Positions 5,101 through 38,247 of a stretch of DNA of 55,690 bases are shown here, piece after piece (positions within the stretch are counted from its first letter, which is position 1; each line of letters opens with the position of its first letter). The position numbers and the translations under genes were made by a program. The notes under the pieces were generated by a model. It had not been told where the DNA came from. It ran no database searches and saw nothing but the letters and a program-made list of their open reading frames with translations. The stretch is from the IMG/VR virus record IMGVR_UViG_3300049259_000141, positions 1 through 55,690 of that record; one strand, 5' to 3'. The stretch is from a virus (taxonomy: Duplodnaviria; Caudoviricetes).

Positions 5101-5475
5101 CAGTGACTTGCGCACCTCTTCGGCCAGCTGCGCCTGATCGACGCCGGCGACGCCCAGTTCAACCCCGAACTTGACGTCGCCGGCAATCGCCTGCGCCTTC
5201 TTCACCTCGGCCTCAACGGCGGGAATGAACCCGTCGTCGTTCAGCTCGACGCTGATCTTCAGATTGCCGGCCGTGGCCTTGGCCGCCTTGATCGCGTCCT
5301 GCAACTTGCGGGCCAGCGACGCCGTGTCGACGCTCAGGGCAAGCTGTGAGGTGGCCGCCTCGCGCACGGCGGCTTCGACCTTGCTGCGGATCTCCTCGGC
5401 CAGCCCGGTGTCATCGGCCGTGATCTCGACGCCCAATTCGCCGATAATCTTGGCCAATTTAGCCACCTCCCCCAT
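2194..5475 (-). CDS. tape measure protein
   Basis: About 1090 aa, Ala/Gly-rich and helical, with periodic aromatic residues and a C-terminal 'SHSPSR' motif. Lies after the tail chaperones. True start may be TTG at 5457 (SD GGAGGT). Confidence 0.92.
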   Translation of the reverse strand: MGEVAKLAKIIGELGVEITADDTGLAEEIRSKVEAAVREAATSQLALSVDTASLARKLQDAIKAAKATAGNLKISVELNDDGFIPAVEAEVKKAQAIAGDVKFGVELGVAGVDQAQLAEEVRKSLTLAQADVPALKVKIELDDNGFVESVQIAVEKAKAEVSKIKIGLDIDAGALAAKVKLAAEIASRESTIKPKVDPKTAEADFETFATGLRSKLSGLQGAFNGFASGFFSSVFSVSKWSSIVVGAAQAATSVINLSGALGVLPGVVFAGVTAIAALKIGVSGFGQAIKDIGTDKFGQDLAKLAPSARDTAQAIAGIKPQLDQLKLDVQQQLFEGLGNAVRTLGSQLLPILNTGLSGMATVLNSGAQQVTAFFSAATVKNDLATAFGAAQAGVANLLQALPSVLSIFRDLGTVGAEAFANVTGGAAAAAQKVADFVARARESGALGNFITLGVAAFEELGHIIANVLSILNTLLGAFGGGAGILGLLFDLTNALRAFLATAQGQAAITALGQAMQQIAASAGQVFLALLQSLGQILADHAPDIAAFAKALGDDLVSAINVLAPLLSGLLTAIGAHPELFANIALGAIALAGALNILVPIVTVVTTLIAAGTVGLVAAIVAAVVTAVILIILNFDKIKAAVGAALDAIGQFFVFLGTTIANAFGVAVAFVEGIWNGVVSFFVGIGTAIGSAVSSAIGAVGQFFADGFNAVVTFVGTAVLSIISFFIALPGQVLAFIAAIPAQAGAFISQLAFDFGFAVGAILRFFIDLPQNVVNAVGVLITDIGLFSVNFGLTLISGFTTAFDAVITFVTTVPGQIIDALISLAIDIYNWGIGVWVQANIAFLNGVGAVIQFAATLPNRVISAVQQLVGLIISWGANVWSQALSAFNNGVANVLSFVRSLPGNVINAIGNLGNKLYQVGVDALNGLLNGLKSIVGNILGWVKGLVGDILGGFTSGFNSHSPSRETYSIGQDVAAGLANALRDARGLVGAAAGDLAQAGLDGLSPILNPTVNTTAVANGISAAANSLTTNPAGGVNYTVNQTNLMQQGTDVNQFADAVLKNGAAALSSGASLLGVSQLGVQAGINPNLLAVSGV

Positions 5476-10075: not shown

Positions 10076-11863
10076 TCAGTCGTTCGCCTGCCCGGCGGAG
10101 GTGATCGTCGTGACGGTCTCGACGGCGACGGTGGCAGCGGCCGCGCCGGTCGGCTGAAGCGACATGGCGATGTGCAGGGACTCGATGCCCCGGAACGCCG
10201 TGTGTTCGAAGCCCTCGGAGAACGTCTGGTAGCGGTTCTCGCCCACCAGCGTGCTGTCACGGATGACACCGACGTCGAGGGTGCCGCCGTCCATCAGCAG
10301 CCAGTCGCCCTCGGCGAACAGCAGCGTCGACACGACGTCCGGGAAACCGGGGATGACCTGGCCGGCGACGACCGGCGAGTAGAACTGGTTGGGGATCGTC
10401 AGCGCCGGGGTGGTGATGTTCGCCGGCTTGATGCCGTCGAGGTGCCAGGTGACGGCGACGTTCCTCGCGCTGAACCAGTCGGAGATCATCGCATCGGTGG
10501 CGGCCAGCGTGACGAGACCGTCGCCGGGCATCTGCCGCAGCAGGTCGACGCGCAGCAGGTCCTTCATCCACAGGGGTGCGATGAACCGCAGGTTCCGGTT
10601 GCTGTTCAACCGGTGCACGTTGCGGTAGTAGGCCAGCACGTGATCGATGGTGGCGAGGGTGTCGCGCACCGCGCCGAGCAGCTGCTTGGACTGCACGGTG
10701 GTCGAGCCGGTGGTGAGCTGCGTGATCAGCTCGTTCTCGGCCTTCTGCGCGTACGCGATGTTCTGCGCCTTGACGATCGAGTCGGCCCACTCGGGGTCGA
10801 AGCGCGACGACATGTTCGAGATGGTCAGGCACTGATAGATGGCCTGCACCTCGGCCTCGACGACACCGGGGCACGCGATTTCGACGCAGGACTTCGGCAC
10901 GATCGGCGACGCCGTGTCGCTGTCGGTGGTCCAGATGCCGATGCCACCCGTCTGGGCCACACCCGAGATCGCCGGACGGTAGGTGATGCCGCCACGGTCG
11001 GCGGTGACGCGGTTGAGCGCGTCACGCACCGGGCGGTCGACGTCACCGATCACCGGGATGTCGTAGAGCACCTGAAGCGGCGCGCAGAACCCGCCGGCAG
11101 CGGTCAGCACGTCGCCGGTGGCGGCCTGCTCGGACAGCTGCTCCAGCTGGAGCTTGTTGTCGAAGGCATCGGCCCCGGCGCGGAAGACACGCGACTCGGG
11201 GAAGTCGGTGCGCTGCCGGATCACATCCGTGCGGCCGTTCAGGCCGGCACTGAGCTGGCCGACGCGCCGGAAGGCCTCCGCGAACGCGTGCGCGACGCCA
11301 CGGCGGTCGAGCTGGACACCGCTCTCCGAGCCGGGCCCGGACAGTGCCATGGTGCGGACGTTGGCAACCTCGCCGCCAACGCCGGGGCGCAGCCCGGACG
11401 CGCGGCCGCCGAGTCGCCGGCCGGCCGCCTGCACGCCGTCGCCCTTGTCCTCGGTTGACTCGCCGCCCTCGGGCTGTTCGGCCCCGGCACCGTCGCCGCT
11501 CTCCGTCTTGTCGTTCTCGGCCGCGCGCCGCTGGCCCGGGTTGGCCGGGTGCAGCTCATTGCCGGCGGGGTCGGTCGCCAGCTCGGCCAGCTCGGCCAGG
11601 GAGGCCTTGCCGTCGGCGGCGAGCTTGTCGAGGTTGGCCTGCGCGGCCTTGATCTCGGTCAGCGCGGCAACGTGCGCCTGCACGACCGGCACCTCTTCGG
11701 CCGCCAGGTCGCCGGCCTTCGCGCTGAACGGCGCGGCCGACTTCAGCACCTCAGCGCGGATGGCGGCCAGTTCGGCCGGGGTCTTCGTCGCGAGTGCGGC
11801 CTTCGCCTCTGCCAGCTGATCTCCGCCGGCAGCGAAGGCGGCGAGAATCTGTGAGACGTCCAT
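10076..11863 (-). CDS. major capsid protein (hexamer-type) with N-terminal scaffold-like region
   Basis: 595 aa, coiled-coil/low-complexity N-terminus, then 'LTAAGGFCAPLQVLYD...RGGITY...LDVGVIRDSTLVGENRYQTFSE'. Confidence 0.88.
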   Translation of the reverse strand: MDVSQILAAFAAGGDQLAEAKAALATKTPAELAAIRAEVLKSAAPFSAKAGDLAAEEVPVVQAHVAALTEIKAAQANLDKLAADGKASLAELAELATDPAGNELHPANPGQRRAAENDKTESGDGAGAEQPEGGESTEDKGDGVQAAGRRLGGRASGLRPGVGGEVANVRTMALSGPGSESGVQLDRRGVAHAFAEAFRRVGQLSAGLNGRTDVIRQRTDFPESRVFRAGADAFDNKLQLEQLSEQAATGDVLTAAGGFCAPLQVLYDIPVIGDVDRPVRDALNRVTADRGGITYRPAISGVAQTGGIGIWTTDSDTASPIVPKSCVEIACPGVVEAEVQAIYQCLTISNMSSRFDPEWADSIVKAQNIAYAQKAENELITQLTTGSTTVQSKQLLGAVRDTLATIDHVLAYYRNVHRLNSNRNLRFIAPLWMKDLLRVDLLRQMPGDGLVTLAATDAMISDWFSARNVAVTWHLDGIKPANITTPALTIPNQFYSPVVAGQVIPGFPDVVSTLLFAEGDWLLMDGGTLDVGVIRDSTLVGENRYQTFSEGFEHTAFRGIESLHIAMSLQPTGAAAATVAVETVTTITSAGQAND

Positions 11864-13627: not shown

Positions 13628-16405
13628 TTAGTCGGCGTGGCTCTTAGCCTTCTTGGCTTCCCAATCCGCTGCGGCGGCACACCATTCGGCCCTGGTGCCG
13701 GCGTTCACTTCCTGCTGACCCGGCCAGTTCAAATCGCCCGTGGCACAGCCCTTCTTGACCACGTTGACGGCCGTCGCGATCGCCCGCGACTTGTCCATTC
13801 CCTTGGCCTCAAGGTGCTTCTCGATCTTCTTGACCGGCAGAGGCAGGCCGCCGGCGTCCTCGACCCAGTTGAACTGCCCGTCACCTTCGGCGAGCAGTTC
13901 GATCTCGACGGCCAGCTGCATCAGCGGGTCCTCTTCGAGCTCGACCGAGTGGCCGCTGAGCTCGGCCAGCTGCGAGAGCGCGGCCACCCCCTGGGCGCGC
14001 AGCGCGTCCCGGGCGTCCATGCGGCGCACCACGGCCTCGGCCAGCGCCTCCATGTCGACCGTGACCGGCTGCATGACCGGCACCTGCTCCAACCGGCCAG
14101 CGGCCACCAGGGCGAGCTGCACTCCGGACGCCACACGGGCGCGCGGCACCGGGAACCCGGGCGTGTTCACCCCGAGCACGGCGACCAGTTCGAGCGTGCC
14201 GCCGATGTTGCGCCAGTCGCCCGACGGCGGCGCGGCCCGGAACGCGCGCCAGTCCTTTGCCGACAGGCCGTCGCGCACCGCGCCCGAAACCCAGATGCCG
14301 TGTGCGTCCTCCCCGCACACCACGTCCGCCCCCACGGTGCCGGTGTCGTCGTAGTGGCGCACCGTGCTGGCCGCCGACAGCTTGCCGCCGGCGTGCCCGG
14401 TGCCGAACGTGAGGTGCCCGACCGCGACCGGGCCGGCGTCAGTCAGCACCTCGCCGGTGTGGAAGTAGGCGTACTTCGTGGCCGACTTGGGCGGCGTGAC
14501 GCACTGGCCGCCGAAGCCGATGTGACAGGTGCCCCACGTGGCGATATGCCCGAACACGCGGCCGTCCTCGGCGAAGGTCAGCGGCGTTGGCCCGGCCAGC
14601 TTCGGGTCCTCGAAGTGGCTGGCCGGCAGGACGCGCGCCGAGCTGGCCACCATGGACGGCTTGCCGCCGTTCAGCGGGTAGTCGACGGTGTGCTGCGGGG
14701 TGGCGACGCGCACCTTGCTGAACTTGACCGGGCCCGGGTGGTTCAGCTTGGGCAGGACCTTCGCGGCGTCCGGGGACTGCTTGGCGGTGACGTGCGGCAC
14801 GAACGGGGTGTGCTGTTCGGGCAGCTTGCGCCGGCCGCCGAGCATGGCCGTCACGTGCTGGTGCACCTTGTCGCGGAAGTCTCCGACGTCGGCCGAGTCG
14901 CCGAGCAGGTGCACGGCGGCCGGCGTCTGCTTGCCGGTCTTGCCGCCGTTGGGGTTGAACAGCGATGGGCCGAGCACGTGGGCTTTGATCGGGCCGCCGC
15001 GCTTCTGCGGGGGCTTCGGCCGTGGCTGCGGGATCTGAGGAGTCGTCGTCTTGTCTCCCGCATCTCCTTCTACGCCAGGTCCGGACGCGTCGGCGAAGTC
15101 GCCCGGCTGCTCGCCGGCAGCGGCCGGGAACACGTCGTGGTCGGTGTCGCCCTCGGGCGTGGTGTCGTCGTCGCCATCCCCGTCGGGGTCCATGGCCGAC
15201 GAATTGTGGTGCGCGATCGCCTGATTCACACCACTGTGCACGTCGGCGATGTCCTGCGGCGACCACTCAGGCAGGTCGTCGCCGAGGTACAGCATGGTGC
15301 AGTGCATCTCATCGGCGGGGTCGCCGCCGGGCACAGTGAAGGCTTCCGGGTTGTCCGGCATCAGGGCCACCATGCCGGACGTCGGGTACTGGTCGCCGGC
15401 CGCGCGGAGATCCTGCTCCCACGGAGCGGTCTTGCCCATGCGCCGGTAGGTGAGCGCGAGCACCGTCTTGGCCCGCTCCTTGTCGGCGGTCGGCATGTTC
15501 GAGCCGTCCAGCCGACCAGCGGCGGCCGACACGGCGGCCGGCACGATCTTGGGCTTGCCGTCGATGATGTCGACCAGAGGGAACCCCCACGCACCGATGG
15601 TCTTCGCGTCGGCGGCGTCGTCACGATACAGAAACGCGGTGCTCAGCTTGCCCGTGTCGTTGCCGGCCCAAGCCTCGATTCGCTTGGTGGCTGCGCCCGC
15701 GTCCCATGCCGTGCTGTCGGACGCGAAGGGCAGGCTGGCGAAACCCGCCGAGTTGACGGCGGCCACCAACTGCCCCGCCAGGCACGGTGAGCAGGCGTCG
15801 CCGAGGTCGGCCGAGCGCCACATGGGTGTTGCCGAGGCGGCCAGGGCCTGCGCGTTGGGCTCGATGGTCTGGCCGTCCAGCACCACGTAGGCGTCCGGGA
15901 ACGCCGGCAGGCCGACCAGGGTCGTTGCGCCGATGACACCCTCGACCATGTTGAGCTGCTCGTTGCCGTCGTCAGCCATGGACACGTCTGCGACCACGGC
16001 GGACAGGTCCACCGAGTTGCCGGAGAGCGCGCCGTCCTTGACCATGCGGAACGCCGGCACGTCGTTGTACATCCACCCCTTGCCGGACCACACGAAGGTG
16101 CCGTCGGGGAACGGCTGGCCGGTGGACTTGCTGACCACGTCCGGGCCCGGAGTGCGGGTCAGCTCGGTCAGCGCGCCGACCACGTCCGCGTTGTCGTGGC
16201 CCTGACCGCCGTCGGGCGTGCGCGTCTGGGCGTAGAGGGTGAGTGGCACGGCGCGGTGGGTCAGCGCGCCGGGCTCGATGTACCGGCCGTCAGCGGTCGC
16301 CATGCCTTCGATAGCGAGGCAGGGGAAGCTGATCGGCGCGGCGTTCTCGGGGGTTGCCGGCGCGCTTTGCGTGGGCTGCGTCGACTCAATCACGGGGGCA
16401 GTCAC
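13628..16405 (-). CDS. capsid maturation protease polyprotein with an internal 2H phosphoesterase domain
   Basis: Downstream of portal. Protease-like N-terminus 'EGMATADGRYI...GATTLVGLPAF', internal HCT and HVT motifs, second conserved block 'GRVFGHIATWGTCHIG...GDWRNIGGTLELVAVLGVNTPGFP'. GTG start at 16405 overlaps the portal stop. Confidence 0.8.
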   Translation of the reverse strand: MTAPVIESTQPTQSAPATPENAAPISFPCLAIEGMATADGRYIEPGALTHRAVPLTLYAQTRTPDGGQGHDNADVVGALTELTRTPGPDVVSKSTGQPFPDGTFVWSGKGWMYNDVPAFRMVKDGALSGNSVDLSAVVADVSMADDGNEQLNMVEGVIGATTLVGLPAFPDAYVVLDGQTIEPNAQALAASATPMWRSADLGDACSPCLAGQLVAAVNSAGFASLPFASDSTAWDAGAATKRIEAWAGNDTGKLSTAFLYRDDAADAKTIGAWGFPLVDIIDGKPKIVPAAVSAAAGRLDGSNMPTADKERAKTVLALTYRRMGKTAPWEQDLRAAGDQYPTSGMVALMPDNPEAFTVPGGDPADEMHCTMLYLGDDLPEWSPQDIADVHSGVNQAIAHHNSSAMDPDGDGDDDTTPEGDTDHDVFPAAAGEQPGDFADASGPGVEGDAGDKTTTPQIPQPRPKPPQKRGGPIKAHVLGPSLFNPNGGKTGKQTPAAVHLLGDSADVGDFRDKVHQHVTAMLGGRRKLPEQHTPFVPHVTAKQSPDAAKVLPKLNHPGPVKFSKVRVATPQHTVDYPLNGGKPSMVASSARVLPASHFEDPKLAGPTPLTFAEDGRVFGHIATWGTCHIGFGGQCVTPPKSATKYAYFHTGEVLTDAGPVAVGHLTFGTGHAGGKLSAASTVRHYDDTGTVGADVVCGEDAHGIWVSGAVRDGLSAKDWRAFRAAPPSGDWRNIGGTLELVAVLGVNTPGFPVPRARVASGVQLALVAAGRLEQVPVMQPVTVDMEALAEAVVRRMDARDALRAQGVAALSQLAELSGHSVELEEDPLMQLAVEIELLAEGDGQFNWVEDAGGLPLPVKKIEKHLEAKGMDKSRAIATAVNVVKKGCATGDLNWPGQQEVNAGTRAEWCAAAADWEAKKAKSHAD

Positions 16406-19152
16406 GACGCCACCTTTCCACCATTGATAAAGCGTGCCTGCAATTTCTGAATGCGTTCCCACTGATCCCGCATGGCTTGCGCATTCGTATTCTTTCGACC
16501 GGCCTGGTCATCCATCTGCGCGAGAGAGATGATATTCGCCATGTCGACCGACGGCTTCGTGAGCCGCTGCGCCACCTGCTGGCCGTATTTCGGCACGGCG
16601 TAGGCCGGCACATAGTCGCACATGCAGCCCTGGTGGTCGCCGGGGTGCATATGATCTCCGAGCCATTCGTATCCGCTCGGCGGGTCGAGTTGCGGGTCCG
16701 ACCAGTCGGCGAAGCGAATGCCCTCGATGTTCAGGTGCGGAATGAAATTGTCGGGGGCCAGGGTGACGCCGTAAACCCACAGGTAGCCGAGGTTCACCGC
16801 GCCGCGTTCCGCCAGGGTGGCCTGCACCGTCGAGCCGGACGCCAGGCCGGCCGCCGGCGCGCTGCTGCGCCCTGTCGAGTTGACGTGTGCCGCGCCCTCT
16901 CCGATGCCGCCGATGTCGGCCAGCACCGCCCGCACCATGCCCGGCGGTACCCGGGTGTCGGCCAGCTCGCTGTTGGTGGGCGGCGTGTACTCGCCGTGCA
17001 GCACCTTGTCGGCGAGCTCTTCGAGGTCACCGTTGAGCCGGTGCCAGCCGTTGTTCACGCGCCCAGCCATGTCGGCGTGCACACGGTCGTGCAGCTGGTG
17101 GGCCTGGTCGCTGCCGGCGGGGATGCGCAGCATGCGCACCAGCTTGGTGGCGATCCGGTCGATGGCGGCCAGCGTCCACTGCGTGAACTTGCCGCCGAGC
17201 GTGGCGAACGCGCCGGCGATCAGGAAGTCGGCTGTCGCCCCCGCCGTCAGGGCCCGGTCGCGGCCGATGAACGCACCCCACTCTTCGTACGGCCGGGCGC
17301 GCAGCTCGGCCGAGATTGCCGTGTCGCCGCTGAACTTCGAACGCAGCTTGCTCGCGCCCCGGCGCACCGCGTCGGCCAGCATGGTGTCCGCAGCTGTGAT
17401 GATGCGCTCGCGCAACGCCTGCTCGATGGCCACAATGTCCCGGTAGTCGTCGAACACCAGGTCGTAATCGGGGTCGTCGTAGACGGCGGCGGCGACCATG
17501 GACAGCTTGGCCGAGAGCCGTTCGAGCACGGCGTGCCCGTCGGCGGCCAGGCCGGGCGGTGTCGCCGGCGGTGCACCGACACCGCCGCTGGGGCCAGCCG
17601 GCAGGCCGGCGGGCTCGGTGACCTCCTTGGTGATGCCGTCGGCCGGCGCGCCGCCCTTGTCGCCGATGCTGACCGTTTCGCGCGTGGGCAGCACGATCGG
17701 TTCCTTCGGCGTCAGCACGCGCTGAATCAGCTGGGACGCGGTGAGGGGGTCGAAGGCCGTCTTGAACAGCAGCATCCGCAGGGTCTCGTCATCGGACGGC
17801 TTGTCGCCGTCGTTGAACCCGAGGGCCTGCAACAGGGCGTCGTACCCGATTCCGCCGACCGCGAAGGCGTCGAGGGCATCCTGCCGGCGGTTGGTGTTCT
17901 CGGTGATGTTGCCGGCGTCGTACCAGATGCGGATCCGCTTGACGTCCTTCGGGTCCCACCCGTCCTCAATCAGGTTGTACCGCAGGTAGGCGACGGTCAG
18001 CGAGTCGACCATGCGCCGCGCGCCCGGCTCCAAGTGGTAGCGGAACGTGCTGGCGTCGATCTGCCACGCCGACCAGTGGTTCGAGTCGCCCAGGCCGGCG
18101 ATGATCTCGGGCGGCAGGTCCATGCCTCGGCCCATGCGCCGCAGGGCCTCTTCGAGTTTCGCGGCCAGCTCGGGTGACGTCTCGCGCGCGAGCTGAAGGT
18201 GCGTGACAGCCTTGATGTCCTCGGCGTCGCCGGTCAGCACCAGGGGCACGACCGCGCCGGCGTCACCTTCGTTGGTGATCGGCGCGAGCAGGGCGGACGT
18301 CAGCTCGCCCATGAATTCATCGGAGTCCACCGACACGCCGTCGACTTCGCCGTTGGTGTTGCGGGCGAGCGTCATCGTGTTCGGGAACATCAGCAGCCCG
18401 TTCGCGGCGATACGCGAGCGGGCGGCGGCCCGGATCTCTCGGCCGATCAGCACGATGTCTTCGAACACGTCGAGGGCGGCCTGACACGGCGAATCGGCGA
18501 GGATGCCCCGGCGGGGATGCGGGACCCACAACCTGTACAACTCCTCTTCGTCCCACTGGACGTAGCGGCGCTGCCCCGGGTTGTCGTCGTCGTCGATCTG
18601 GCACGTGCGGCCGTCCTGCCCGGGCCACACTTCGTCGATCGACCGGATGCGCCACTGCTCGTCACCGGTGTCGGGGTCGATGGTGCCGTGCAGCCAGCAC
18701 TCGCCGGCGGCGTCGAAGTTCTCCGACCACGCGCCGAGGAAGGTGAAGCCGTCGTCGAGCGGCAGCCGGTCGAGCATGGCCTGTGCGGCGTCGACCAGGT
18801 CTGGCGGCAGGTCGATCTGGGCCGCCTTTTTCGGGTCCTTGTCGTGGATCAGCGACAGCGGGATCGGTTCGTCGTCGTCGCTGATGACCAGCGCAGGGAA
18901 GAGCCGGATACGGCTGAGGGCCGAGGAGCGGTAGCCCATGGCGAACCGCAGCTCGGGGATACTGTCCCGGTAGCGCCAGGCGAGCGGCTGCCACTGCTGC
19001 CGTGCCTGCGCGACGGCGCGCAGCTGGTTGCCGCCGCCCTCGGTCGACGGCTTGATGCGCATGCCGGCGGCCCGCATGGCGCGCACGTGCCGTGACTGGC
19101 CGGGCTCGGTGACGTCGCCGCTTCGCCATCCGAAGCGCTGGAAGATACCCAC
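16402..19152 (-). CDS. portal protein with C-terminal MuF-like extension
   Basis: 916 aa, 'WQPLAWRYRDSIPELRFA...LWVPHPRRGILADSP...GDSNHWSAWQID'. The C-terminal 'HPGDHQGCMC' resembles the MuF Cys motif. Confidence 0.85.
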   Translation of the reverse strand: MGIFQRFGWRSGDVTEPGQSRHVRAMRAAGMRIKPSTEGGGNQLRAVAQARQQWQPLAWRYRDSIPELRFAMGYRSSALSRIRLFPALVISDDDEPIPLSLIHDKDPKKAAQIDLPPDLVDAAQAMLDRLPLDDGFTFLGAWSENFDAAGECWLHGTIDPDTGDEQWRIRSIDEVWPGQDGRTCQIDDDDNPGQRRYVQWDEEELYRLWVPHPRRGILADSPCQAALDVFEDIVLIGREIRAAARSRIAANGLLMFPNTMTLARNTNGEVDGVSVDSDEFMGELTSALLAPITNEGDAGAVVPLVLTGDAEDIKAVTHLQLARETSPELAAKLEEALRRMGRGMDLPPEIIAGLGDSNHWSAWQIDASTFRYHLEPGARRMVDSLTVAYLRYNLIEDGWDPKDVKRIRIWYDAGNITENTNRRQDALDAFAVGGIGYDALLQALGFNDGDKPSDDETLRMLLFKTAFDPLTASQLIQRVLTPKEPIVLPTRETVSIGDKGGAPADGITKEVTEPAGLPAGPSGGVGAPPATPPGLAADGHAVLERLSAKLSMVAAAVYDDPDYDLVFDDYRDIVAIEQALRERIITAADTMLADAVRRGASKLRSKFSGDTAISAELRARPYEEWGAFIGRDRALTAGATADFLIAGAFATLGGKFTQWTLAAIDRIATKLVRMLRIPAGSDQAHQLHDRVHADMAGRVNNGWHRLNGDLEELADKVLHGEYTPPTNSELADTRVPPGMVRAVLADIGGIGEGAAHVNSTGRSSAPAAGLASGSTVQATLAERGAVNLGYLWVYGVTLAPDNFIPHLNIEGIRFADWSDPQLDPPSGYEWLGDHMHPGDHQGCMCDYVPAYAVPKYGQQVAQRLTKPSVDMANIISLAQMDDQAGRKNTNAQAMRDQWERIQKLQARFINGGKVAS

Positions 19153-21448: not shown

Positions 21449-21478
21449 AGATTAGCCCGATCAACCAGTGGGTGTCAA
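21449..21478 (-). promoter_or_regulatory. promoter (GTTGACACCC family)
   Basis: TTGACA-18 bp-TAATCT. Confidence 0.7.
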
Positions 21479-21486
21479 CACCTATC

Positions 21487-21669
21487 TCAGCCGAGTTTCT
21501 CGATCAACTTCCGAGCCGCCGCATGCGCCCGCGCCGACCGCATCGACCGACCAGCCGCCACGACGTCACCGCGCTGGCGGTCGTTCCTGGCCACCGCAAG
21601 ATGCAGCTCCCACAGCATCCCGTTGTCGACGGGGCCGTGCTCGGATCGGGGTATCGGTGGAGTGATCAC
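21487..21669 (-). CDS. hypothetical protein
   Basis: 60 aa, GTGA overlap with the upstream gene, GGAGG SD. Confidence 0.5.
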   Translation of the reverse strand: MITPPIPRSEHGPVDNGMLWELHLAVARNDRQRGDVVAAGRSMRSARAHAAARKLIEKLG

Positions 21670-21923
21670 TTCACCTCCTTGGCCAGCTGGGCCATCAGGA
21701 CGTGCAGGCGCAGGAACAGGTCACCCACCACGGCCAAGTCCTCGGCCGGGACCCACATCGGCGAGTCGCCGTCGGGGTTGTGCAGCACGATGCCGGCGGG
21801 GGGGCGGCCGCCGGCTGGGCAGTCGCCGCCATGCTCGTCGAGGATGTCGACCATGTAGCCGCGTTCCTCGGCGGGTCGGCGAAATACGGGGTGCGTCTGC
21901 GTGGTCTTGTTCACGGCGGTCAC
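21666..21923 (-). CDS. hypothetical protein
   Basis: 85 aa, translationally coupled. Confidence 0.55.
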   Translation of the reverse strand: MTAVNKTTQTHPVFRRPAEERGYMVDILDEHGGDCPAGGRPPAGIVLHNPDGDSPMWVPAEDLAVVGDLFLRLHVLMAQLAKEVK

Positions 21924-22067
21924 TCGCCGTCCGGGTGCGGCCGGTCGTCATCCGGGTTGACCATGCGGTCGCCCAGTTTGAGGAACTCGGCGAGTTCGAT
22001 CATGTCGATGTCGGTCATAGGTCCATTGAACCCCACTCGCCGATGGGTGTCAACACCAGGGGACAAC

Positions 22068-22105
22068 GAAGGCCCGGGGATACCGTTAAGCAGCCCCGGG
22101 TCTTC
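22068..22105 (-). terminator. terminator of the putative long ncRNA
   Basis: GAAGACCCGGGG...CCCCGGGCCTTC followed by GTTGT on the minus strand. Confidence 0.65.
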
Positions 22106-22196
22106 GCGTGCAGGTCCGCCACGCGTAACGGATCCCTGCGGACTAACAGCTTGACGGGGGCCACGGCGTTCCCGTTCATCACTGCGCGTGCGTCCT

Positions 22197-22275
22197 GCGG
22201 GTGGCCGGGACTCGAACCCGGATCTCGGTTGTCTTTGTCAGCGCGCGCCCGCTCTGGCCATTGAGCTACCACCCA
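22197..22275 (-). tRNA. tRNA-like element with unpaired, enlarged anticodon arm (pseudo-tRNA; loop CU-GAC-AA is Val-like)
   Basis: TGGGTGG/CCACCCG acceptor, TAGCTCAATGGCCAGAGC D-arm, CCGGG-TTCGAGT-CCCGG T-arm. 29 nt between D and T arms with no anticodon stem. No encoded CCA. Confidence 0.65.
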
Positions 22276-22403
22276 ACGGTGTGCACCAGCCCCCGTACTG
22301 GTCCCCTGACCGGGTGCGAGCCGGAAACGGGGAGTGTTCGGGGGGCCGGTGACCACCCGGCGGTTGGCTATCGCGACCCGCCGGTCGCGACTCCTGCCGC
22401 CTT

Positions 22404-22480
22404 GCGTGCTGCCACGGACGCGAACCGTGGATCCCTGACTGACTCCTGCTCAGCCTGCTCTGCCGTTGAGCTACAGCACT
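22404..22480 (-). tRNA. tRNA-like element with non-canonical anticodon loop (pseudo-tRNA)
   Basis: GTGCTG/CAGCAC acceptor, TAGCTCAACGGCAGAGC D-arm, 6-bp GGCTGA/TCAGTC stem with loop GCAGGAG (no U33), CCACGG-TTCGCGT-CCGTGG T-arm (no A58). Confidence 0.65.
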
Positions 22481-22956
22481 CCATCCGGCTGCGTCACCCC
22501 GGTGTTGGCGAGCGGCCCCGCCTCACGCAGTCATCCTGTGCGTTCTGTCCTGACCGCCTGCCGGGTGTCCGCAGATGGTTCAAGTCGGGCGGCGGCGGGG
22601 CCTTGGGAGGACCTTCCCCGGTGGCGACCCGGTTCCGTTCCCCTTGCCGCCCCGCCTCCGAATGTGGTAGCCGAGGCCCCCGCCGACCCTAGCTGTGTCC
22701 TCGGCCCGACGTGCCACGCGCCCGGGGACTCCCTACCTCACCTCACCGCTGCCGTTCCGGTCTATCGTTAGGCTTGCCTAACTGTTCGGATCTCGGGGGC
22801 GGGTCTCGGTGTCTATGGAGTTGTTGTCCCGGCCAGCAGCCTAGCGAGCTTCGGCGTTCAAGGCGACCGCTGGCCGAGGATTATGGATCGGGCACTGCTC
22901 GGGGCTCTCACCCGCAGTGGCGGCAATGCTCGCTGGCTCTGTGCCCGATGACTGCG

Positions 22957-22985
22957 ACGCTACACCCCGACATCGGCGGGGTCAA
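22957..22985 (-). promoter_or_regulatory. promoter driving the non-coding region
   Basis: TTGACC-17 bp-TAGCGT, predicted start near 22950. Confidence 0.65.
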
Positions 22986-23220
22986 CGCCGGTCGGAAGGA
23001 TCAGCAGCGACGGCACGGGCACGTCGCAGCGGCGCACCTGGAAGCCGGCCCATGTCAGCACCGCCGGCCCCCAGAACTTCGGCACCACCACGACCACGCG
23101 TCCGGGGACCAGCACGGCCATGCCGAGCATGGTCAATAGGCAGTCAAGCTGCGCCTGCCACACGTCCGGCAGCGGGCCATCACAGACCGTGAAGGTCGGT
23201 GCGGCATCGGGCGTCAGCAC
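22960..23220 (-). CDS. hypothetical protein
   Basis: 86 aa, overlaps the upstream stop; its 3' end contains the ncRNA promoter. Confidence 0.45.
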   Translation of the reverse strand: MLTPDAAPTFTVCDGPLPDVWQAQLDCLLTMLGMAVLVPGRVVVVVPKFWGPAVLTWAGFQVRRCDVPVPSLLILPTGVDPADVGV

Positions 23221-23642
23221 AGCTCACCGGGGTACGGCCGGTATGCGTCGATGATCTCGGCGACGTACGGGAAGTCGACGGCCTTCACCTTCCGGTAGTC
23301 GGTGTCCTTCGCGAGATGCCGGTTCGTCCACTCGTGCGGAAGGTCCTCGAACTCGACCAGCAGGTCGGACCGCTCCGAGACGTTGCCCGACTTGAGGCGT
23401 CGCCAGGCGAGCATCTCGACGTTCGTCAGCCGCCAGTCAGTCCGTTCGGTGACGTGGCTGCCTGCATAGAGGGTTCGCCGCTTGAATTTGATCACCAGTT
23501 CCTGTGGGGCCCACCTGACGTCATCACCACCATGGGGGTGCCAGAAGTCGGGACGGCCGGCCAGGTTGTACCGCACGACGCGCTCGACGTTGTCGTCAAT
23601 GCTCGGGAGCTGCGTGTCCGTCGTCGGCTCGATGTCGGTCAC
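23214..23642 (-). CDS. hypothetical protein
   Basis: GTG start coupled to the upstream stop, normal high-GC codon pattern. Confidence 0.65.
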   Translation of the reverse strand: MTDIEPTTDTQLPSIDDNVERVVRYNLAGRPDFWHPHGGDDVRWAPQELVIKFKRRTLYAGSHVTERTDWRLTNVEMLAWRRLKSGNVSERSDLLVEFEDLPHEWTNRHLAKDTDYRKVKAVDFPYVAEIIDAYRPYPGELC

Positions 23643-24450: not shown

Positions 24451-24783
24451 TCACGCGGCCAGCGACGACACCGCCAGCCGGTGGTAGCACTCCCGGCCCC
24501 GCACGCCCGCCGGGCACGTGCAGGCGGCCGGCGCGGTGCGGTACACCTCTCCACCCTTGCTGCTGACGACCAGCCACACACGGCCCGGACGGAGCACCTC
24601 CACCGCGCCATCGGCCAGCAGCTGCTGCGCCTTGTCCAGCTGGGCCGGCTGGGCGGTGCTCGCGGCGAGCTCGGCCTTGGCCTTGCGGTCGCATACCGGG
24701 CCGCGACCGAGGGCGACCGACTTCGCGTCGCGCAGTGTGCGGCCACAGCGGGTGCACTTGCGGGTGGTGGACTGGTCGCTCAT
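24451..24783 (-). CDS. DUF6011-like Zn ribbon plus SWIM-type zinc finger protein
   Basis: 'CTRCGRTLRDAKSVALGRGPVC' and 'CTCPAG...CYH'. Confidence 0.75.
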   Translation of the reverse strand: MSDQSTTRKCTRCGRTLRDAKSVALGRGPVCDRKAKAELAASTAQPAQLDKAQQLLADGAVEVLRPGRVWLVVSSKGGEVYRTAPAACTCPAGVRGRECYHRLAVSSLAA

Positions 24784-25284: not shown

Positions 25285-25331
25285 ACACTACGCTCTCTTC
25301 CGGTGGGTGTCAACACACCCACCGGAAGAGA
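25285..25331 (-). promoter_or_regulatory. promoter with the -35 box at the centre of a 17-bp perfect palindrome
   Basis: TTGACA-17-TAGTGT, TCTCTTCCGGTGGGTGT-CAAC-ACACCCACCGGAAGAGA (25294-25331). Confidence 0.85.
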
Positions 25332-25753: not shown

Positions 25754-25999
25754 CTAGTTCGCCACCAACGACTGCCAGTCCAGGCCAAGGGACTTCGCCA
25801 GCTCCACCCCCGTGACCGTGAAGTACGCGAACGCAATACCCCGATCTGAGTGCGTCGTGAGCAGGCCGGCCCGCTTCAGATCGGTCAGGTTGCCCTTCTG
25901 CGCCCGGGTGACCTCCACAATGGGGGTGCCGGACCAGTTGCCGGCGTCGTCGACCAGGGCACGGAACAGCTGGTCGGATGCGGGAGTTAGGTTGGACAT
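25754..25999 (-). CDS. small winged-helix-like protein
   Basis: 'GNLTDLKRAGLLTT...AYFTVTGVELA' resembles a wHTH wing. GGAGG SD. Confidence 0.6.
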   Translation of the reverse strand: MSNLTPASDQLFRALVDDAGNWSGTPIVEVTRAQKGNLTDLKRAGLLTTHSDRGIAFAYFTVTGVELAKSLGLDWQSLVAN

Positions 26000-26042
26000 T
26001 GTGTCCTCCGTTGGGGCTGTTCGTTTCTCTCTGACATGGACT

Positions 26043-26079
26043 ACATTACGCACCCTGTTGCGTGGGTGTCAACACGCAA
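26043..26079 (-). promoter_or_regulatory. promoter with the -35 box inside a 7-bp palindrome
   Basis: TTGACA-18-TAATGT, arms TTGCGTG/CACGCAA. Confidence 0.75.
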
Positions 26080-26119
26080 TCGGCGGGACCGCTCGAATGG
26101 AGCAGTCCCGCCGAAGTGC

Positions 26120-26141
26120 TTACCGCAACTAACGATTTTAC
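26120..26141. repeat. right copy of the 22-bp perfect inverted repeat
   Basis: TTACCGCAACTAACGATTTTAC. Confidence 0.9.
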
Positions 26142-26390
26142 CTACCCCACCACACCGCCGTGATGTGAGCACGCACCCTGACGGTGCGCCGCCATACTGG
26201 TCGTGCCGTCGGCGCAATGCCAGCCGGACGGCGCTGACGGGGTCGAGCTGACCGGCGGCGCTGACGCGGCTGTGGCCGGCGCGGGCACGCTGGTTGTGCG
26301 CTCTGCGGGCACCGGATCTGGTTGCTGTTCGCAACTAACGACCGTCATCCCCAGACACAACGCGACCGCGAGCAGGCCGGCCCTATGCAT
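26142..26390 (-). CDS. DUF3761-like lipoprotein
   Basis: Signal peptide ending VVSC, C-terminal 'CADGTTSMAAHRQGACSHHGGV'. Confidence 0.7.
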   Translation of the reverse strand: MHRAGLLAVALCLGMTVVSCEQQPDPVPAERTTSVPAPATAASAPPVSSTPSAPSGWHCADGTTSMAAHRQGACSHHGGVVG

Positions 26391-26928
26391 CGCGCAACGG
26401 CTTCCGCACCCTGCGCCGCTCGCCGAACACCGCATCGGCCCGCCGCAGAGCCTCACGCTCCACAGCCTCGCGACGGGTGACGGCACCCCGCCCGGCGGCT
26501 GCGGCACGCACAGCGGCCGCCACAGCGCGAGCACGGCGGGTCGACGGCTCCTCGCCCATCACTTCGCCCCGATGGCGCGGCCGTGCTTCGGGCACTCGGG
26601 CCGGCGCAGCGTCACCAGCTTGCCGTTGGCGTCCCGATCCCGGTACTTGGTCTTCCGCAGCCGTCTCATGCAGGTCACCCCGTTGACCAGGGCCAGGCAC
26701 GTGCCCAGCTGTTCGGCCTTCGCAATGCTCACCGATGTCCCCTTCCTAGATCGCCCGGGCGGCAGTCGCCCCCGGGCTGTGCTTGCCGGCCGCGTTCCTG
26801 ACCCAATCGCGTCGGGCCGCCGCCGTCATGGTGCCCCAACCGGCCGGTGCGGTCACCCAGCAACGCGACCGCCTGCCGCCCTGCTTGACGAACTCGATGT
26901 GCACCCGCACGCCCTGCTTGGCCATGCT

Positions 26929-28006: not shown

Positions 28007-28038
28007 ACATTACACGCCCTACCGGTGGGTGTCAACAC
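28007..28038 (-). promoter_or_regulatory. promoter, 32-bp direct repeat of 25697-25728
   Basis: TTGACA-17-TAATGT. Confidence 0.85.
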
Positions 28039-30752: not shown

Positions 30753-30910
30753 TTGTCCTCCCCGAGGAGTCGCTTGCGTTTGGCGGCGCGCCGGCCGCAG
30801 ATCTCGTGTGCGATCTTGGTTCGGTCGTCGGGGTTGCTGCGGACGCGGGTGCCGGCGCTGTACGGTTTGCCGCAGACCGAGCACACGCCGTCCGTTTGTG
30901 CCTTGGCCAT
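30749..30910 (-). CDS. small Zn-finger-like protein
   Basis: MAKAQTDGVCSVCGKPY...HEIC, 53 aa. Confidence 0.5.
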   Translation of the reverse strand: MAKAQTDGVCSVCGKPYSAGTRVRSNPDDRTKIAHEICGRRAAKRKRLLGEDK

Positions 30911-31304
30911 TGTGTATGCCTCTCTGGGAATGTATGAATGGCGGGCCCGGGGTCGATGTTGGCGTCCCGGTCACCGGCTTAGTGATGCGGCGATGGCGAG
31001 TGTCCACAGCGCGGCGGCCACGGCGAGTAGGCCGGCGACGATGCGCCAGCGTCCGGCCACGGTGCACACGTAGGCGAGCGCGAGCGCCGCGATGGCCAGC
31101 GCCGCCCAGTACGCGGCCCATCCGGGTGTCATGGGTGTTGGGCGGCCAGCGCGCCCATGATCGTTATCGTGCAGTAGCAGACGATCGTGATCAGCGCGCC
31201 GGCCAGTTGGGTGCGCCGGTCGTTGTGCTCGATGCCGGCCATCAGCATGCCGAAGCCGCAGCCGCCGACCGCACTGACCGCCAGCAGCAGCACTGTGAAG
31301 GTGT

Positions 31305-36148: not shown

Positions 36149-37672
36149 CTACCGCCTTCCCGACATCGCGTGTCGGATACCGCTGGTCATCTGGTGTCGT
36201 TGGATCTGCCCCTGCGCGCGGCGCGGCGGCTTCGGAATGCCGGCCTTGACCAGCCACAGCACGGCGTACACGAAGGCATCGAGCCGGTCCGGGGACTCGG
36301 TCTCATCGGTGGTCCACGTGGTCAGCTGGTCTTCGAGGTACTTGAAGACACCCACGTGGTGGGTGCGGTGCTGCTCGGACACCACGGAGACCGGCTCGGC
36401 CCGGACGCGCTTGCCCTGCTTGGCCCGGATCTTGTGGATGGCGGCGGGCAGGGTGCGGCCGTGCAGCTTCTCGGTGGTGCGGATCAGGTCGACCAGGGCC
36501 TGCCCGCCGTTGTTGACCTCGATGATGATCTCATTGCAGTTCCACAGGTCGTAGACCCGCAGGATCTCGGCCGCCCATTTGGCCGGCGAGTCGCGCATCG
36601 AGTAGTCGCCGAGGATGTACACGTGGCCGTCGCTGCCGAGGCCGGCGACGATCAGACCCGTTTCGTCGGGGTCCTGCCGGCCGCGCCGGCCCTTGTGCTC
36701 ATCGTCCGACTTGCGGTCCTCGACGGCCGGGTCAACGGCGAGCACGATGCGCACCAGGGCAAACTCATGCACGTGACCGTCGGCGTCGACCCACGTGCGC
36801 GGCAGTTCCTCGCGCCGGTCGTCGTCGATCTGCTTCTGCTTCCACAGCGCGCCCTCGACCTCTTCGAGCAGGTCGGCGTCAAGCTCTTGGCGGCCCTTGG
36901 CGGTGCCGTCGAACTTGGCGTGCAGCGCGCGCAGGGTGGACGCAGGCAGGTTGGCCCGGTTCGAGTCGGTGGTGCCGCGCCGGGTCTCGCAGTACGGATC
37001 CTTCAGCAGGTCCTTAATCACCGACAATGGAAGCGGTGTGGTGGTTGCGACAATTTGCGGATGCCGTCCGAGTCGCATTCCAAACAAAAGCATTTCCCAA
37101 GCGTCGACCGCCCGCTTGGCCACTTGTGCCAATTCATCTACCCAAGCCCTATGGTGCTGCGGGCCGCGTAGGCGGGCCGGTTTCTCCGCGCTGAAGAGCT
37201 TGTACCGGCTGCCCGTCATCGGAATGATCAGCTCGCCGATCGACCGGTTCCACGTGTACTGGACCCCCATGCGCAGCAGCACCGACTCAAGCCCGGACTC
37301 ACCCTCGACGCAGGTGTCCCGGGCGTCCGCGAAGGTCGGGGCGACGATGGCCATCCGCCAGTTACTGTTCAGCACGCCGGCCGCAGCCATGTCCTCGGCG
37401 GCCGAGCGCGTCTTGCCGGCACCACGGCCAGCCAGATACAGGGTGACGTCCCAAGCCTGGCCGAGCGGTGTGCGCTGCTCGGGGCGGCACGTCGAGCAGG
37501 AGTGGCACAGCGTGCCCGGCACGCGCTCCCAGTGCACCGCCAGCTCGGGAGATGGCCAGTTGGCCGGGTCCGGATCCTGGCAGCTGCTGTCACGCCAGTC
37601 GCGCAGCACGCGCAGCCAGTCGGCTTCCGCCTCGGCGTCGAGCATGTTCGCTGCGACGCCGAGGAAACTCAC
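36149..37672 (-). CDS. terL: terminase large subunit
   Basis: Walker A AGRGAGKT, 'LRGPQHHRAWVDE' Walker B, nuclease motifs 'LAVDPA' and 'SPDRLDAFVYA'. GTG start overlaps the terS stop. Confidence 0.95.
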   Translation of the reverse strand: MSFLGVAANMLDAEAEADWLRVLRDWRDSSCQDPDPANWPSPELAVHWERVPGTLCHSCSTCRPEQRTPLGQAWDVTLYLAGRGAGKTRSAAEDMAAAGVLNSNWRMAIVAPTFADARDTCVEGESGLESVLLRMGVQYTWNRSIGELIIPMTGSRYKLFSAEKPARLRGPQHHRAWVDELAQVAKRAVDAWEMLLFGMRLGRHPQIVATTTPLPLSVIKDLLKDPYCETRRGTTDSNRANLPASTLRALHAKFDGTAKGRQELDADLLEEVEGALWKQKQIDDDRREELPRTWVDADGHVHEFALVRIVLAVDPAVEDRKSDDEHKGRRGRQDPDETGLIVAGLGSDGHVYILGDYSMRDSPAKWAAEILRVYDLWNCNEIIIEVNNGGQALVDLIRTTEKLHGRTLPAAIHKIRAKQGKRVRAEPVSVVSEQHRTHHVGVFKYLEDQLTTWTTDETESPDRLDAFVYAVLWLVKAGIPKPPRRAQGQIQRHQMTSGIRHAMSGRR

Positions 37673-38247
37673 GCGGCCTCGACGATCCGCAGGTGGCGCG
37701 CGAACACCTTCGCCGCCTCTGCCCGCTGCTCGGGGCCGATGCCGAGCTCTTCGAGGCCGGCGGTGAACGCCTGCCGCACCATGGCCGCCTGCTGCTCCTC
37801 GATACGGGCAAGTCGTTCGTCGATGTTGAGCCGGGCCAGCGTGGCCAGCGCGGTGATCGCACGGTCGAGGGCGCGTTCCCACACCAGGATCTCGGCGCGC
37901 ACCGTCTCGACGCCCAGCTCCGAGAAGGTGGACACGCTGGTGATGTTGTCCAGCTCTTCGCGGCACAAGTTCTTCCACTGCACCACTTCGCCGGCGAGCT
38001 GTTGCAGGGCGTGCAGCGGGTTCTCAATCGAGGGGGCGAGTCCGAGGCGTGCGGCCGCGTTGCCGATCCTCTCCTCGATGCGCGCCTTTTCGGCGGCTAT
38101 GCGCGGACCGGGCAGGTTGCCGCCATGCGTGGGGCAGCGTGTCTGATGGTCCCGGGGGAAGCGACGGCACAGGCCGGTCGGATTCTTTTCGGTGACCTTC
38201 TGCTTGGCACCGCACCGTGGCTTGTCTGATGTCTGATTGTTCGGCAT
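37669..38247 (-). CDS. terS: terminase small subunit
   Basis: Directly upstream of terL, 'RCGAK...C...RCPTHGG' N-terminus and helical C-terminus. Confidence 0.75.
   Translation of the reverse strand: MPNNQTSDKPRCGAKQKVTEKNPTGLCRRFPRDHQTRCPTHGGNLPGPRIAAEKARIEERIGNAAARLGLAPSIENPLHALQQLAGEVVQWKNLCREELDNITSVSTFSELGVETVRAEILVWERALDRAITALATLARLNIDERLARIEEQQAAMVRQAFTAGLEELGIGPEQRAEAAKVFARHLRIVEAA

Follow-up and report, generated by a model that had tools for sequence, protein, structure and literature searches.

The window analysed here, a 55,690-nt IMG/VR virus record with an estimated completeness of 98%, represents a lytic-type soil actinophage which carries, at positions 22063-22985 of the minus strand, a locus composed of hairpins and of two tRNA-like elements termed tL1 and tL2. 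The sequence evidence indicates that this locus is a real non-coding transcription unit, one of a small family of RNA loci with a modular build. Its promoter and terminator are conserved, its stems are kept by covariation, and the top half of the tRNA-like elements is conserved far above neutral sites. Transcription, cleavage, stability and a partner of the RNA are what we infer, and the reading that we tentatively favour is that of a precursor RNA in which tRNA-like elements serve as punctuation marks and which tRNA-processing enzymes of the host would cut.

The non-coding locus and its signals

Relatives were sought among uncultured viral contigs by way of a flanking protein, the capsid and the terminator-plus-promoter pattern. 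Homologous loci of 581-964 nt occur at the same genomic place in four further distinct IMG/VR genomes, designated L002/G031 (606 nt), G001 (964 nt; identical copies L019 and L021), G005 (820 nt) and G006 (about 580 nt), and these four close relatives agree with the window in promoter type, terminator and the small gene that lies downstream. Contigs of still other relatives are present in soil runs. The homologue search with the neighbouring 170-aa protein returned four proteins, exact-pattern scans for the Y and H2 motifs (two hairpins described below) found the L002 contig only, and a degenerate pattern of the H2 loop found 11 stretches, of which four are known loci and seven are chance matches in coding DNA. 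A metagenome scan added nothing beyond a second copy of the G001 contig. Among cultured phage records, neither blastn in distant mode with a 1051-nt region nor tblastn with the 170-aa protein gave a match.

The locus is non-coding. A scan of the whole window for GC content at third codon positions (GC3) shows no coding periodicity over 875 nt (22151-23025), a longer run than anywhere else in the window; the second and third longest measure 550 and 400 nt. The GC3 of the flanking minus-strand genes is 0.82-0.96. Substitutions between homologues are unbiased with respect to codon position (9/11/11, 13/17/18 and 19/24/22, compared to 31/25/44 in a coding control), and what the homologues conserve is base pairing instead of an open reading frame (ORF). 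The initial annotation, which had described a non-coding stretch with its own promoter and terminator, is borne out by the GC3 scan, by these unbiased substitutions and by signals that are kept across the homologues.

The promoter (22957-22985, minus strand) consists of a -35 hexamer TTGACC (22980-22985), a 17-nt spacer and a -10 hexamer TAGCGT (22957-22962), with a predicted start near 22950. The arrangement TTGAC-17/18-TAG[C/G][G/T]T was present in all four loci searched by script and was recognized by eye in G006, and this promoter type differs from the repeated GTGTTGACACCCA motif of the phage. At the other end of the locus, a terminator-like GC hairpin (22063-22106, minus strand), whose 13-nt inverted repeat (22067-22079/22094-22106) is 92% complementary, is followed by UUCGUUGU, and the promoter of the next small gene lies directly after it. 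The hairpin and its TTCG tail are kept in 5/5 close loci, with a two-sided change in the stem of G006, and a pattern derived from the conserved terminator recovers every close relative.

The tRNA-like elements and selection on their top half

The element tL1 (22404-22480, minus strand) is composed of a 6-bp acceptor stem, a D arm and a 6-bp T stem with the T loop UUCGCGU, and the position of the anticodon arm is occupied by a 6-bp stem with the loop GCAGGAG, which has C33 and no U33. ARAGORN reports 22404-22479 as 'tRNA-Pro AGG', its sole tRNA call in the window, and misses tL2. The Rfam tRNA model does not report tL1 even at E<=10; R1, a covariance model which we built from eight aligned tRNA-like elements, scores it at 66.9 bits, but tL1 belongs to the training set of R1. 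Orthologues of tL1 are found in G006 and G005. In tL2 (22197-22275, minus strand), the acceptor, D and T arms are intact, the T loop reads UUCGAGU, and an unstructured 29-nt stretch replaces the 23-nt anticodon arm plus variable loop; positional orthologues are present in 5/5 close loci. The Rfam tRNA model (RF00005; gathering threshold 29 bits) scores tL2 at 38.7 bits and homologues at 24-40 bits. The ARAGORN and Rfam calls and the folds of the middle regions agree with the earlier description of two cloverleafs that lack normal anticodon arms.

The eight aligned elements come from five genomes. When the acceptor (2:71-7:66), D and T stems are considered together, 93.3% of the cells are paired, compared to 72.9% in shuffles (0/500 reach the observed value) and 39-49% in slid controls. 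The acceptor pairs 2:71-7:66 are paired in 100% of cases, with two-sided changes in 4/6 pairs, and the T stem shows two-sided changes in 3/5 pairs. Of the elbow nucleotides, GG in the D loop, UUCG in the T loop, G53-C61 and A21 are present in 8/8 elements and U8 and A14 in 7/8; the paired stems and elbow nucleotides of the RF00005 cloverleaf are thereby present in the set. CCA is encoded in 0/8 elements, and the A58 position is occupied by C (UUCGCGU) in tL1 of the window and of G006. Position 1:72 is a Watson-Crick pair in 0/8 and U.G once; an element of G011, a distant relative described below, pairs there when read directly, and we draw nothing from this position.

The middle of the elements is far more variable. 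The stretch from D to T stem measures 18-32 nt in the eight elements (23 in tRNA); it is unstructured in tL2 of the window and of L002, whereas three elements have stems of 4-5 bp with loops of 4-5 nt in this place and one has a 10-bp stem. A 7-nt loop is possible in only 2/8 elements, tL1 of the window and tL1 of G006, and U33 occurs in G006 tL1 only. The anticodon features of RF00005, i.e., a 5-bp stem, a 7-nt loop, U33, a purine at 37 and a conserved anticodon, were not found in the set, G006 tL1 being the only canonical element.

A comparison of the window with L002 gives 2/50 differences in the top half of tL2 and 5/29 in its middle region; third codon positions of three flanking genes, which served as neutral reference, differ at 118/384 (31%; binomial P = 2.8e-6 for the top half). 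The corresponding values for the window and G006 are 6/50 and 23/29, and more distant orthologue pairs show 15/27 to 25/32 differences in the middle region. In the soil contigs, the middle region of tL2 takes 7/7 substitutions and 13/18 inserted letters, the other five lying at the 3' side of the D arm, and that of tL1 takes 7/8 substitutions and 4/4 deletions. Judged by these counts, the pattern is the reverse of that of a decoding tRNA and also unlike that of a decaying pseudogene. Since the top half lies far below neutral divergence and stems and elbow are kept, the elements are most readily viewed as selected top-half tRNA mimics and not as decoding tRNAs or decaying pseudogenes.

Hairpin modules, layout and genomic surroundings

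The modules H1, H2, H3, X, tL1, S, Y, tL2, Z, W and terminator were defined by blocks common to the loci, and all coordinates of modules given below refer to the minus strand. H1 (22885-22950) is a 5' hairpin with the closing stem AUCGGGCAC/GUGCCCGAU, a perfect 9-nt inverted repeat, which 3/5 close loci keep, one A-U pair having become G.U; G006 lacks it, and G005 has another hairpin instead. A GGUGARAGYCC motif suggested H1 as a riboswitch candidate, which found no support in Rfam. H2 (22828-22878) has a 13-bp stem and a conserved loop (AACGCCGAAGCUCGC; loop at about 22842-22864). It occurs in 5/5 close loci with 95.2% of the cells paired and four two-sided pair changes, slid controls reaching 16-41%, and its loop is nearly invariant. 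H3 (22767-22782) is a small hairpin GUUAGG/CCUAAC which is common to G001 only, where the loop is different. It is followed by a GC-rich stretch (22531-22766) with several inverted repeats; these ~230 nt have no counterpart elsewhere except for the first part, which is found in G001. X (22489-22530) is formed by a stem CUGCGU...ACGCAG around a small hairpin, is present in the window, in G005 and partly in G001, and has one stem pair with a two-sided change.

Downstream of tL1, S (22371-22391) is a hairpin UCGCGACC/GGUCGCGA followed by UAGCCA, whose stem, read directly, is kept in G006 with one two-sided and one one-sided change. Y (22278-22357), a long hairpin of three tiers, contains the conserved internal loop GAACAC / AGUA and the apical hairpin CCGG-CUCGCAC-CCGG (22310-22324); its outer arms form a 17-nt inverted repeat, and its consensus fold includes two-sided changes. 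In G011, the apical loop CUCGCAC sits on a wholly different stem of 6-7 bp. Z (22173-22196) is a trailer block after tL2, CAGG..CACGCGCAGUGAU, with blocks in the window, L002, G006 and G001, and W (22110-22147) is a 3' hairpin GUCCGC...GCGGAC with CGCAGGGAUCC, whose blocks are kept by sequence conservation in the window, L002, G005 and G006. The seven helices that had been named in the initial annotation are all present in the sequence, and five of them have support in at least one homologue, namely ATCGGGCAC/GTGCCCGAT, the H2 stem, GTTAGGC/GCCTAAC (in G001), CTGCGT/ACGCAG, and TCGCGACC/GGTCGCGA (in G006, read directly). GCCGAGG/CCTCGGC is located in a window-specific insert, and CGCGTG/CACGCG is present in the sequence.

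An unbiased count of 6-mers in eight loci found GTTCGA/GGTTCG, which belong to the T loop, and AGCTCG/GCTCGC in 8/8, mostly on the transcribed strand, a result matched by 0/200 shuffles; on the opposite strand, GTTCGA occurs in 1/8, GGTTCG in 3/8, AGCTCG in 1/8 and GCTCGC in 5/8 loci. CAAGGC, the trailer after several tRNA-like 3' ends, is present in 7/8 loci. The apical part of Y (22310-22320) is complementary (10/11) to the 5' strand of the tL2 T stem plus T loop (22211-22221), which suggests an alternative pairing that might unfold the mimic. This complementarity is strong in the window and L002 (1/500 shuffles), weaker in G011 (11/500) and G005 (27/500), and not significant in G006 (155/500). 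The registers of the Y-T-arm pairing differ between the loci, and we leave the pairing unexplained. A complementarity between the loops of H1 and H2 is specific for the window and is not kept in L002 or G001. For the tL middle regions and the H2 and Y loops, a comparison with the minus-strand RNAs of the phage itself revealed no antisense target, since 30-122/200 shuffles equal the longest perfect complementarity.

Among the five close loci, H2, tL2 and the terminator are present in 5/5, Y in 4/5, and tL1 and H1 each in 3/5. The order of modules varies as well: X is located upstream of tL1 in the window and downstream of the second tRNA-like element in G005, and it directly abuts tL2 in a 10-kb soil contig. 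The initial annotation had proposed one fixed structured RNA of ~890 nt, a view that does not hold for homologous loci of such different length with modules missing, added and reordered. A single global fold is unlikely because modules are absent, added or reordered even between close relatives.

The model R1 was run on 27 related viral records. It regained its training set in five of them and gave new matches in 4/22 others, which are one in G011 (49.5 bits), two in G008 (~24 bits), one in G009 (23.7 bits) and a doubtful partial one in G024. The G011 match, with a middle region of 15 nt, lies inside a gap of ~660 nt between a promoter-like site and a terminator-like hairpin. The matches in G008 and G009 are likewise located inside gaps without coding periodicity, of 1.1 kb (L079, reverse strand ~630-1745) and ~2 kb (L080, reverse strand ~1-2020), respectively. 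ARAGORN labels the elements of G008 and G009 as 'tRNA-???', and the Rfam tRNA model scores them at 24-32 bits compared to 51.7 bits for a good tRNA-Glu(CTC) in G009.

The GC content of the phage genome is 64-73% across most 1-kb windows. Its structural genes form a siphovirus-type set that includes those for the tape measure protein (2194-5475), the major head protein (10076-11863), the portal (16402-19152) and the terminase (36149-37978), and a DnaB-like helicase and a GH25 lysin are also encoded in the window. The capsid shows 33-39% identity to capsids of Gordonia, Arthrobacter and Microbacterium phages, and a search of the window for tyrosine and serine integrases (PF00589, PF00239) gave 0 matches. 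Terminase and portal genes are ~17 kb apart, which is unusual for a siphovirus-type genome, and the interval is filled with small minus-strand genes without known function and with the non-coding RNA (ncRNA) locus. A 944-aa protein (13628-16462, minus strand) matches portal-like, protease-like and 'RNA ligase' families in PHROGs and no Pfam family, the 'RNA ligase' match, to residues 489-598, being a label only. A 110-aa protein (24451-24783, minus strand) has an N-terminal DUF6011 domain (E = 7.7e-12) and is the sole neighbouring small protein with a Pfam family. For ten neighbouring small proteins, PHROGs and Pfam yielded only DUF6011 and weak matches to PHROGs of unknown function, all on one protein, and therefore no protein is linked to the RNA.

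The 13-mer GTGTTGACACCCA has, with up to two mismatches, 14 sites in the window compared to 1.67 expected, 12 of them on the minus strand (e.g., 22044-22056, 21469-21481, 25304-25316, 26063-26075 and 28026-28038), and most of the sites precede small minus-strand genes in the region from 20 to 29.5 kb. Where copies were read (22044-22056 of the window and those of L002, G001, G005, G006 and G008), the complement of ACCCA and a hexamer resembling a -10 box come after the 13-mer, which has the look of a promoter or operator specific to the phage. Stretches of at least 350 nt without GC3 periodicity occur at only two other places, 25901-26450 (550 nt) and 30826-31225 (400 nt); these are candidates for additional non-coding loci, and R1 detected no tRNA-like element in either of them.

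Possible functions and comparison with known systems

As a precursor punctuated by tRNA-like elements, the RNA would be generated by an RNA polymerase that starts at about 22950 and stops at the hairpin near 22063, giving a primary transcript of ~890 nt which would be a chain of independent structured modules (H1, H2, X, Y, W, tL1 and tL2). In tL1 and tL2, selection keeps the acceptor-T stack, the D arm and the D-loop/T-loop elbow, and the position of the anticodon arm is free to shrink, grow or lose structure; because of this freedom, the elements presumably do not decode. What RNase P, RNase Z and the CCA-adding enzyme recognize is a surface made up of the 11-12-bp acceptor/T stack, the D arm and the elbow, which is not the one read by the ribosomal decoding centre, and it is because the preserved top half corresponds to this surface that we favour a tRNA-punctuated precursor. 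Host tRNA-maturation enzymes would bind the top half, with RNase P cutting at the 5' side and RNase Z or exonucleases trimming the 3' side, and the CCA-adding enzyme, needed because no CCA is encoded, would complete the 3' end. Cutting of the precursor at each mimic would then release stable tRNA-shaped RNAs and flanking hairpin RNAs, and the conserved single-stranded loops AGCUCGC in H2 and CUCGCAC in Y might contact a partner.

A more far-reaching and rather improbable extension is a natural 'tRNA scaffold'. A constant L-shaped chassis, stabilized by the host processing, end protection and CCA addition that it recruits, would here carry an exchangeable payload arm within a reshuffling small-RNA operon with AGCUCGC/CUCGCAC hairpins. 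The products would have a target in the host, or they would titrate an abortive-infection enzyme directed at the acceptor end, which would make the operon a new class of counter-defence or regulatory RNA based on mimicry of tRNA. The payload arm is 15-32 nt long in the genomes read, and 18 nt are inserted in tL2 of one soil relative, which would give ~47 nt if all of them lie in the arm.

Several points weigh against a tRNA-punctuated precursor. A scanner for consensus promoters and terminators found 0 promoters and 0 terminators in 21500-23500, and because it called neither, both calls rest on conservation. No RNA run containing the locus was listed among the sequencing runs. Shuffled sequences fold with energies as favourable as those of the tRNA-like elements (z -0.17, +0.24 and -0.24). 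The alignment of eight elements mixes orthologues and paralogues, and the known family, five close and three distant loci, is mutually related, so that shuffle controls may overstate the covariation. One more tRNA-like element each in G001 (its second) and G011 was recognized by eye only and is missed by R1. G006 tL1 has a canonical-looking CAG anticodon loop, and past or present decoding is possible for that element. Finally, nothing in the data distinguishes tRNA-like elements that serve as processing signals from tRNA-shaped RNAs that are the product themselves.

Known RNA families account for none of the locus except its tRNA-like elements. A cmscan search against Rfam (E<=10 on 21900-23200; E<=1 on L002, L010, L014, L067, L078, L079 and L080) gave only tRNA matches, and no match to the covariance models of GOLLD and ROOL or, at the locus, to the Y RNA model; the score of mascRNA-menRNA (RF01684), 17.4 bits compared to a gathering score of 42.5, is sub-threshold noise. 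A transfer-messenger RNA (tmRNA) was found neither by ARAGORN nor by Rfam, and the cloverleafs are contiguous and not split around a tag frame. The Ro60/TROVE family (PF05731) has 0 matches in the genome of the window, control genomes being positive. The earlier statements that tmRNA, RNase P and a Ro60 gene are absent are upheld by these searches, and of the known Rfam families, a strong match to which would have removed the novelty of the locus, only tRNA gave a match.

Among the alternatives, a decoy or sponge is possible though unlikely. The tRNA-shaped modules, processed or not, would titrate a host factor that binds the acceptor end or the elbow, and would spare the host tRNA pool that the phage needs. 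Candidate targets are nucleotidyltransferases of the AbiEii/MenT type, i.e., abortive-infection toxins that modify the 3' ends of tRNAs, and tRNA-modifying or tRNA-degrading enzymes. This function would agree with selection confined to the acceptor/T/D top half, with a phage that has no decoding tRNA (ARAGORN finds tL1 alone in the window), and with the one to two or more such elements per close locus. Actinobacterial toxins that target the acceptor end are described (PMC7450476, PMC10435456), and it has been proposed that phage tRNAs counter host tRNases (PMC10264068). However, abundance, binding and a matching host defence are predicted only, a decoy of CCA-end enzymes would need prior processing since no CCA is encoded, and the loop recognized by anticodon nucleases is missing; a decoy of the latter enzymes is unlikely because the anticodon region is the only part that is not conserved. 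We consider it improbable that the locus specifies one large folded RNA, i.e., an unprocessed ornate RNA of the GOLLD/ROOL kind, possibly a multimer, with tRNA-like domains in the linker between a 5' and a 3' domain. The length of 581-964 nt, the presence on a phage and the tRNA-shaped parts within a larger conserved RNA fit this model. The loss, gain and reordering of modules in close relatives should not be tolerated by a global fold, Rfam matches to GOLLD, ROOL or any large RNA are missing, and no conserved long-range pairing was found, the H1-H2 complementarity being window-specific.

It is very unlikely that the elements are working but unusual tRNAs which decode by non-canonical anticodon arms, e.g., in order to evade host anticodon nucleases. 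ARAGORN does assign anticodons to tL1 of the window (AGG), tL2 of L002 (CAA) and tL1 of G006 (CAG), the last of which has a 5-bp stem, a 7-nt loop, U33 and G37, and anticodon-loop mutations occur in phage tRNAs according to one source (PMC10264068). A 7-nt loop is nevertheless impossible in 6/8 elements, orthologues diverge most in the anticodon region (23/29 and 15/27 differences), tL1 has C instead of A58, 1:72 is a Watson-Crick pair in 0/8, and the 'Leu' calls of ARAGORN lack a long variable arm. A decaying remnant of a tRNA cluster, with pseudogenes as cloverleafs and junk spacer in between, is equally hard to uphold. tRNA clusters are common in actinophages, and the Rfam tRNA scores are low (24-38 bits compared to 51.7 for the G009 tRNA-Glu); what argues against decay is a top half with 2/50 differences compared to 31% at neutral sites (P = 2.8e-6), two-sided changes that keep the stems, intact elbow nucleotides, and the non-tRNA modules H2 and Y, which likewise covary and keep their loops. 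Least probable of all, to a degree that we regard as nearly negligible, are a DNA-level element (an origin, or an attP site on a tRNA-like core) and hidden small ORFs. Phage attP sites often overlap tRNA 3' halves, and frames of 45-163 aa can be drawn across the stretch. There is, however, no integrase and no core identical to a host tRNA 3' half: the 24-mer from the 3' half of tL2 is present in 0 of 185,579 species genomes, and the capsid profile search revealed no prophage relative. Against hidden ORFs stand the missing GC3 periodicity and the missing codon-position bias.

The locus may be compared with several known systems. In GOLLD, the 5' part varies, the 3' part is conserved, and the linker can contain tRNAs (PMC12286853). 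The locus resembles GOLLD and ROOL as long (>600 nt) phage or prophage ncRNAs that are associated with tRNAs, but it matches none of the Rfam models, its embedded elements are not real tRNAs, and it is modular and reordered instead of one ornate fold. The TMERs of murine gammaherpesvirus 68 and the mascRNA of MALAT1 are non-decoding tRNA-shaped elements that act as cut sites for RNase P and tRNase Z. They share with the locus the location of tRNA-shaped elements beside hairpins within longer non-coding transcripts, the likeness on the phage side being that of a substrate-like shape only; they differ in being eukaryotic and transcribed by RNA polymerase III or II, and the RF01684 score of the phage locus is below threshold. 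In bacterial YrlA, the tRNA-like domain is closed by a long Ro-binding stem. YrlA works with Ro60, whereas the phage has no TROVE gene, its cloverleafs are local and self-contained, and no Rfam match was obtained. The YrlA domain mimics the acceptor/T/D part of a tRNA and has no anticodon function (PMC4201824), and the phage elements are alike in this respect.

The stable RNAs that are co-transcribed with the tRNA cluster of phage T4 and the C4 antisense RNAs of P1 and P7 are matured by the tRNA-processing machinery of the host; these phages and sequences are unrelated to the present ones and are likened by description only. With ordinary phage tRNAs, the elements have in common the cloverleaf shape, the elbow nucleotides, the T loop and the location on a phage, but ordinary tRNAs have a 7-nt loop and a defined anticodon, and here the arm measures 18-32 nt and in many cases lacks structure. 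The tRNA genes of phages are commonly seen as codon supplements or as nuclease-resistant replacements. The logic of 'tRNA punctuation' is known from mitochondria, MALAT1 and a herpesvirus. If the phage elements are processing signals, tRNA punctuation would extend to bacteriophages; a decoy role would instead hint that, during infection, the acceptor end or the elbow of tRNAs is attacked or used by host factors. In either case, short and defined substrates, i.e., two elements of 77-79 nt and two conserved hairpin loops, could be tested in vitro without phage culture. Mimicry of tRNA in viral ncRNA is known, and this family is described by no database; a description of such an actinophage locus was not found in the literature, supplementary files with possible tRNA tables not being covered. 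The closest published ideas are mycobacteriophage tRNAs with changes in the anticodon loop (PMC10264068) and GOLLD and ROOL near tRNA islands (PMC12286853). Compared to these, a clade of soil actinophages keeps only the non-decoding half of the tRNA under selection, within a conserved modular ncRNA operon.

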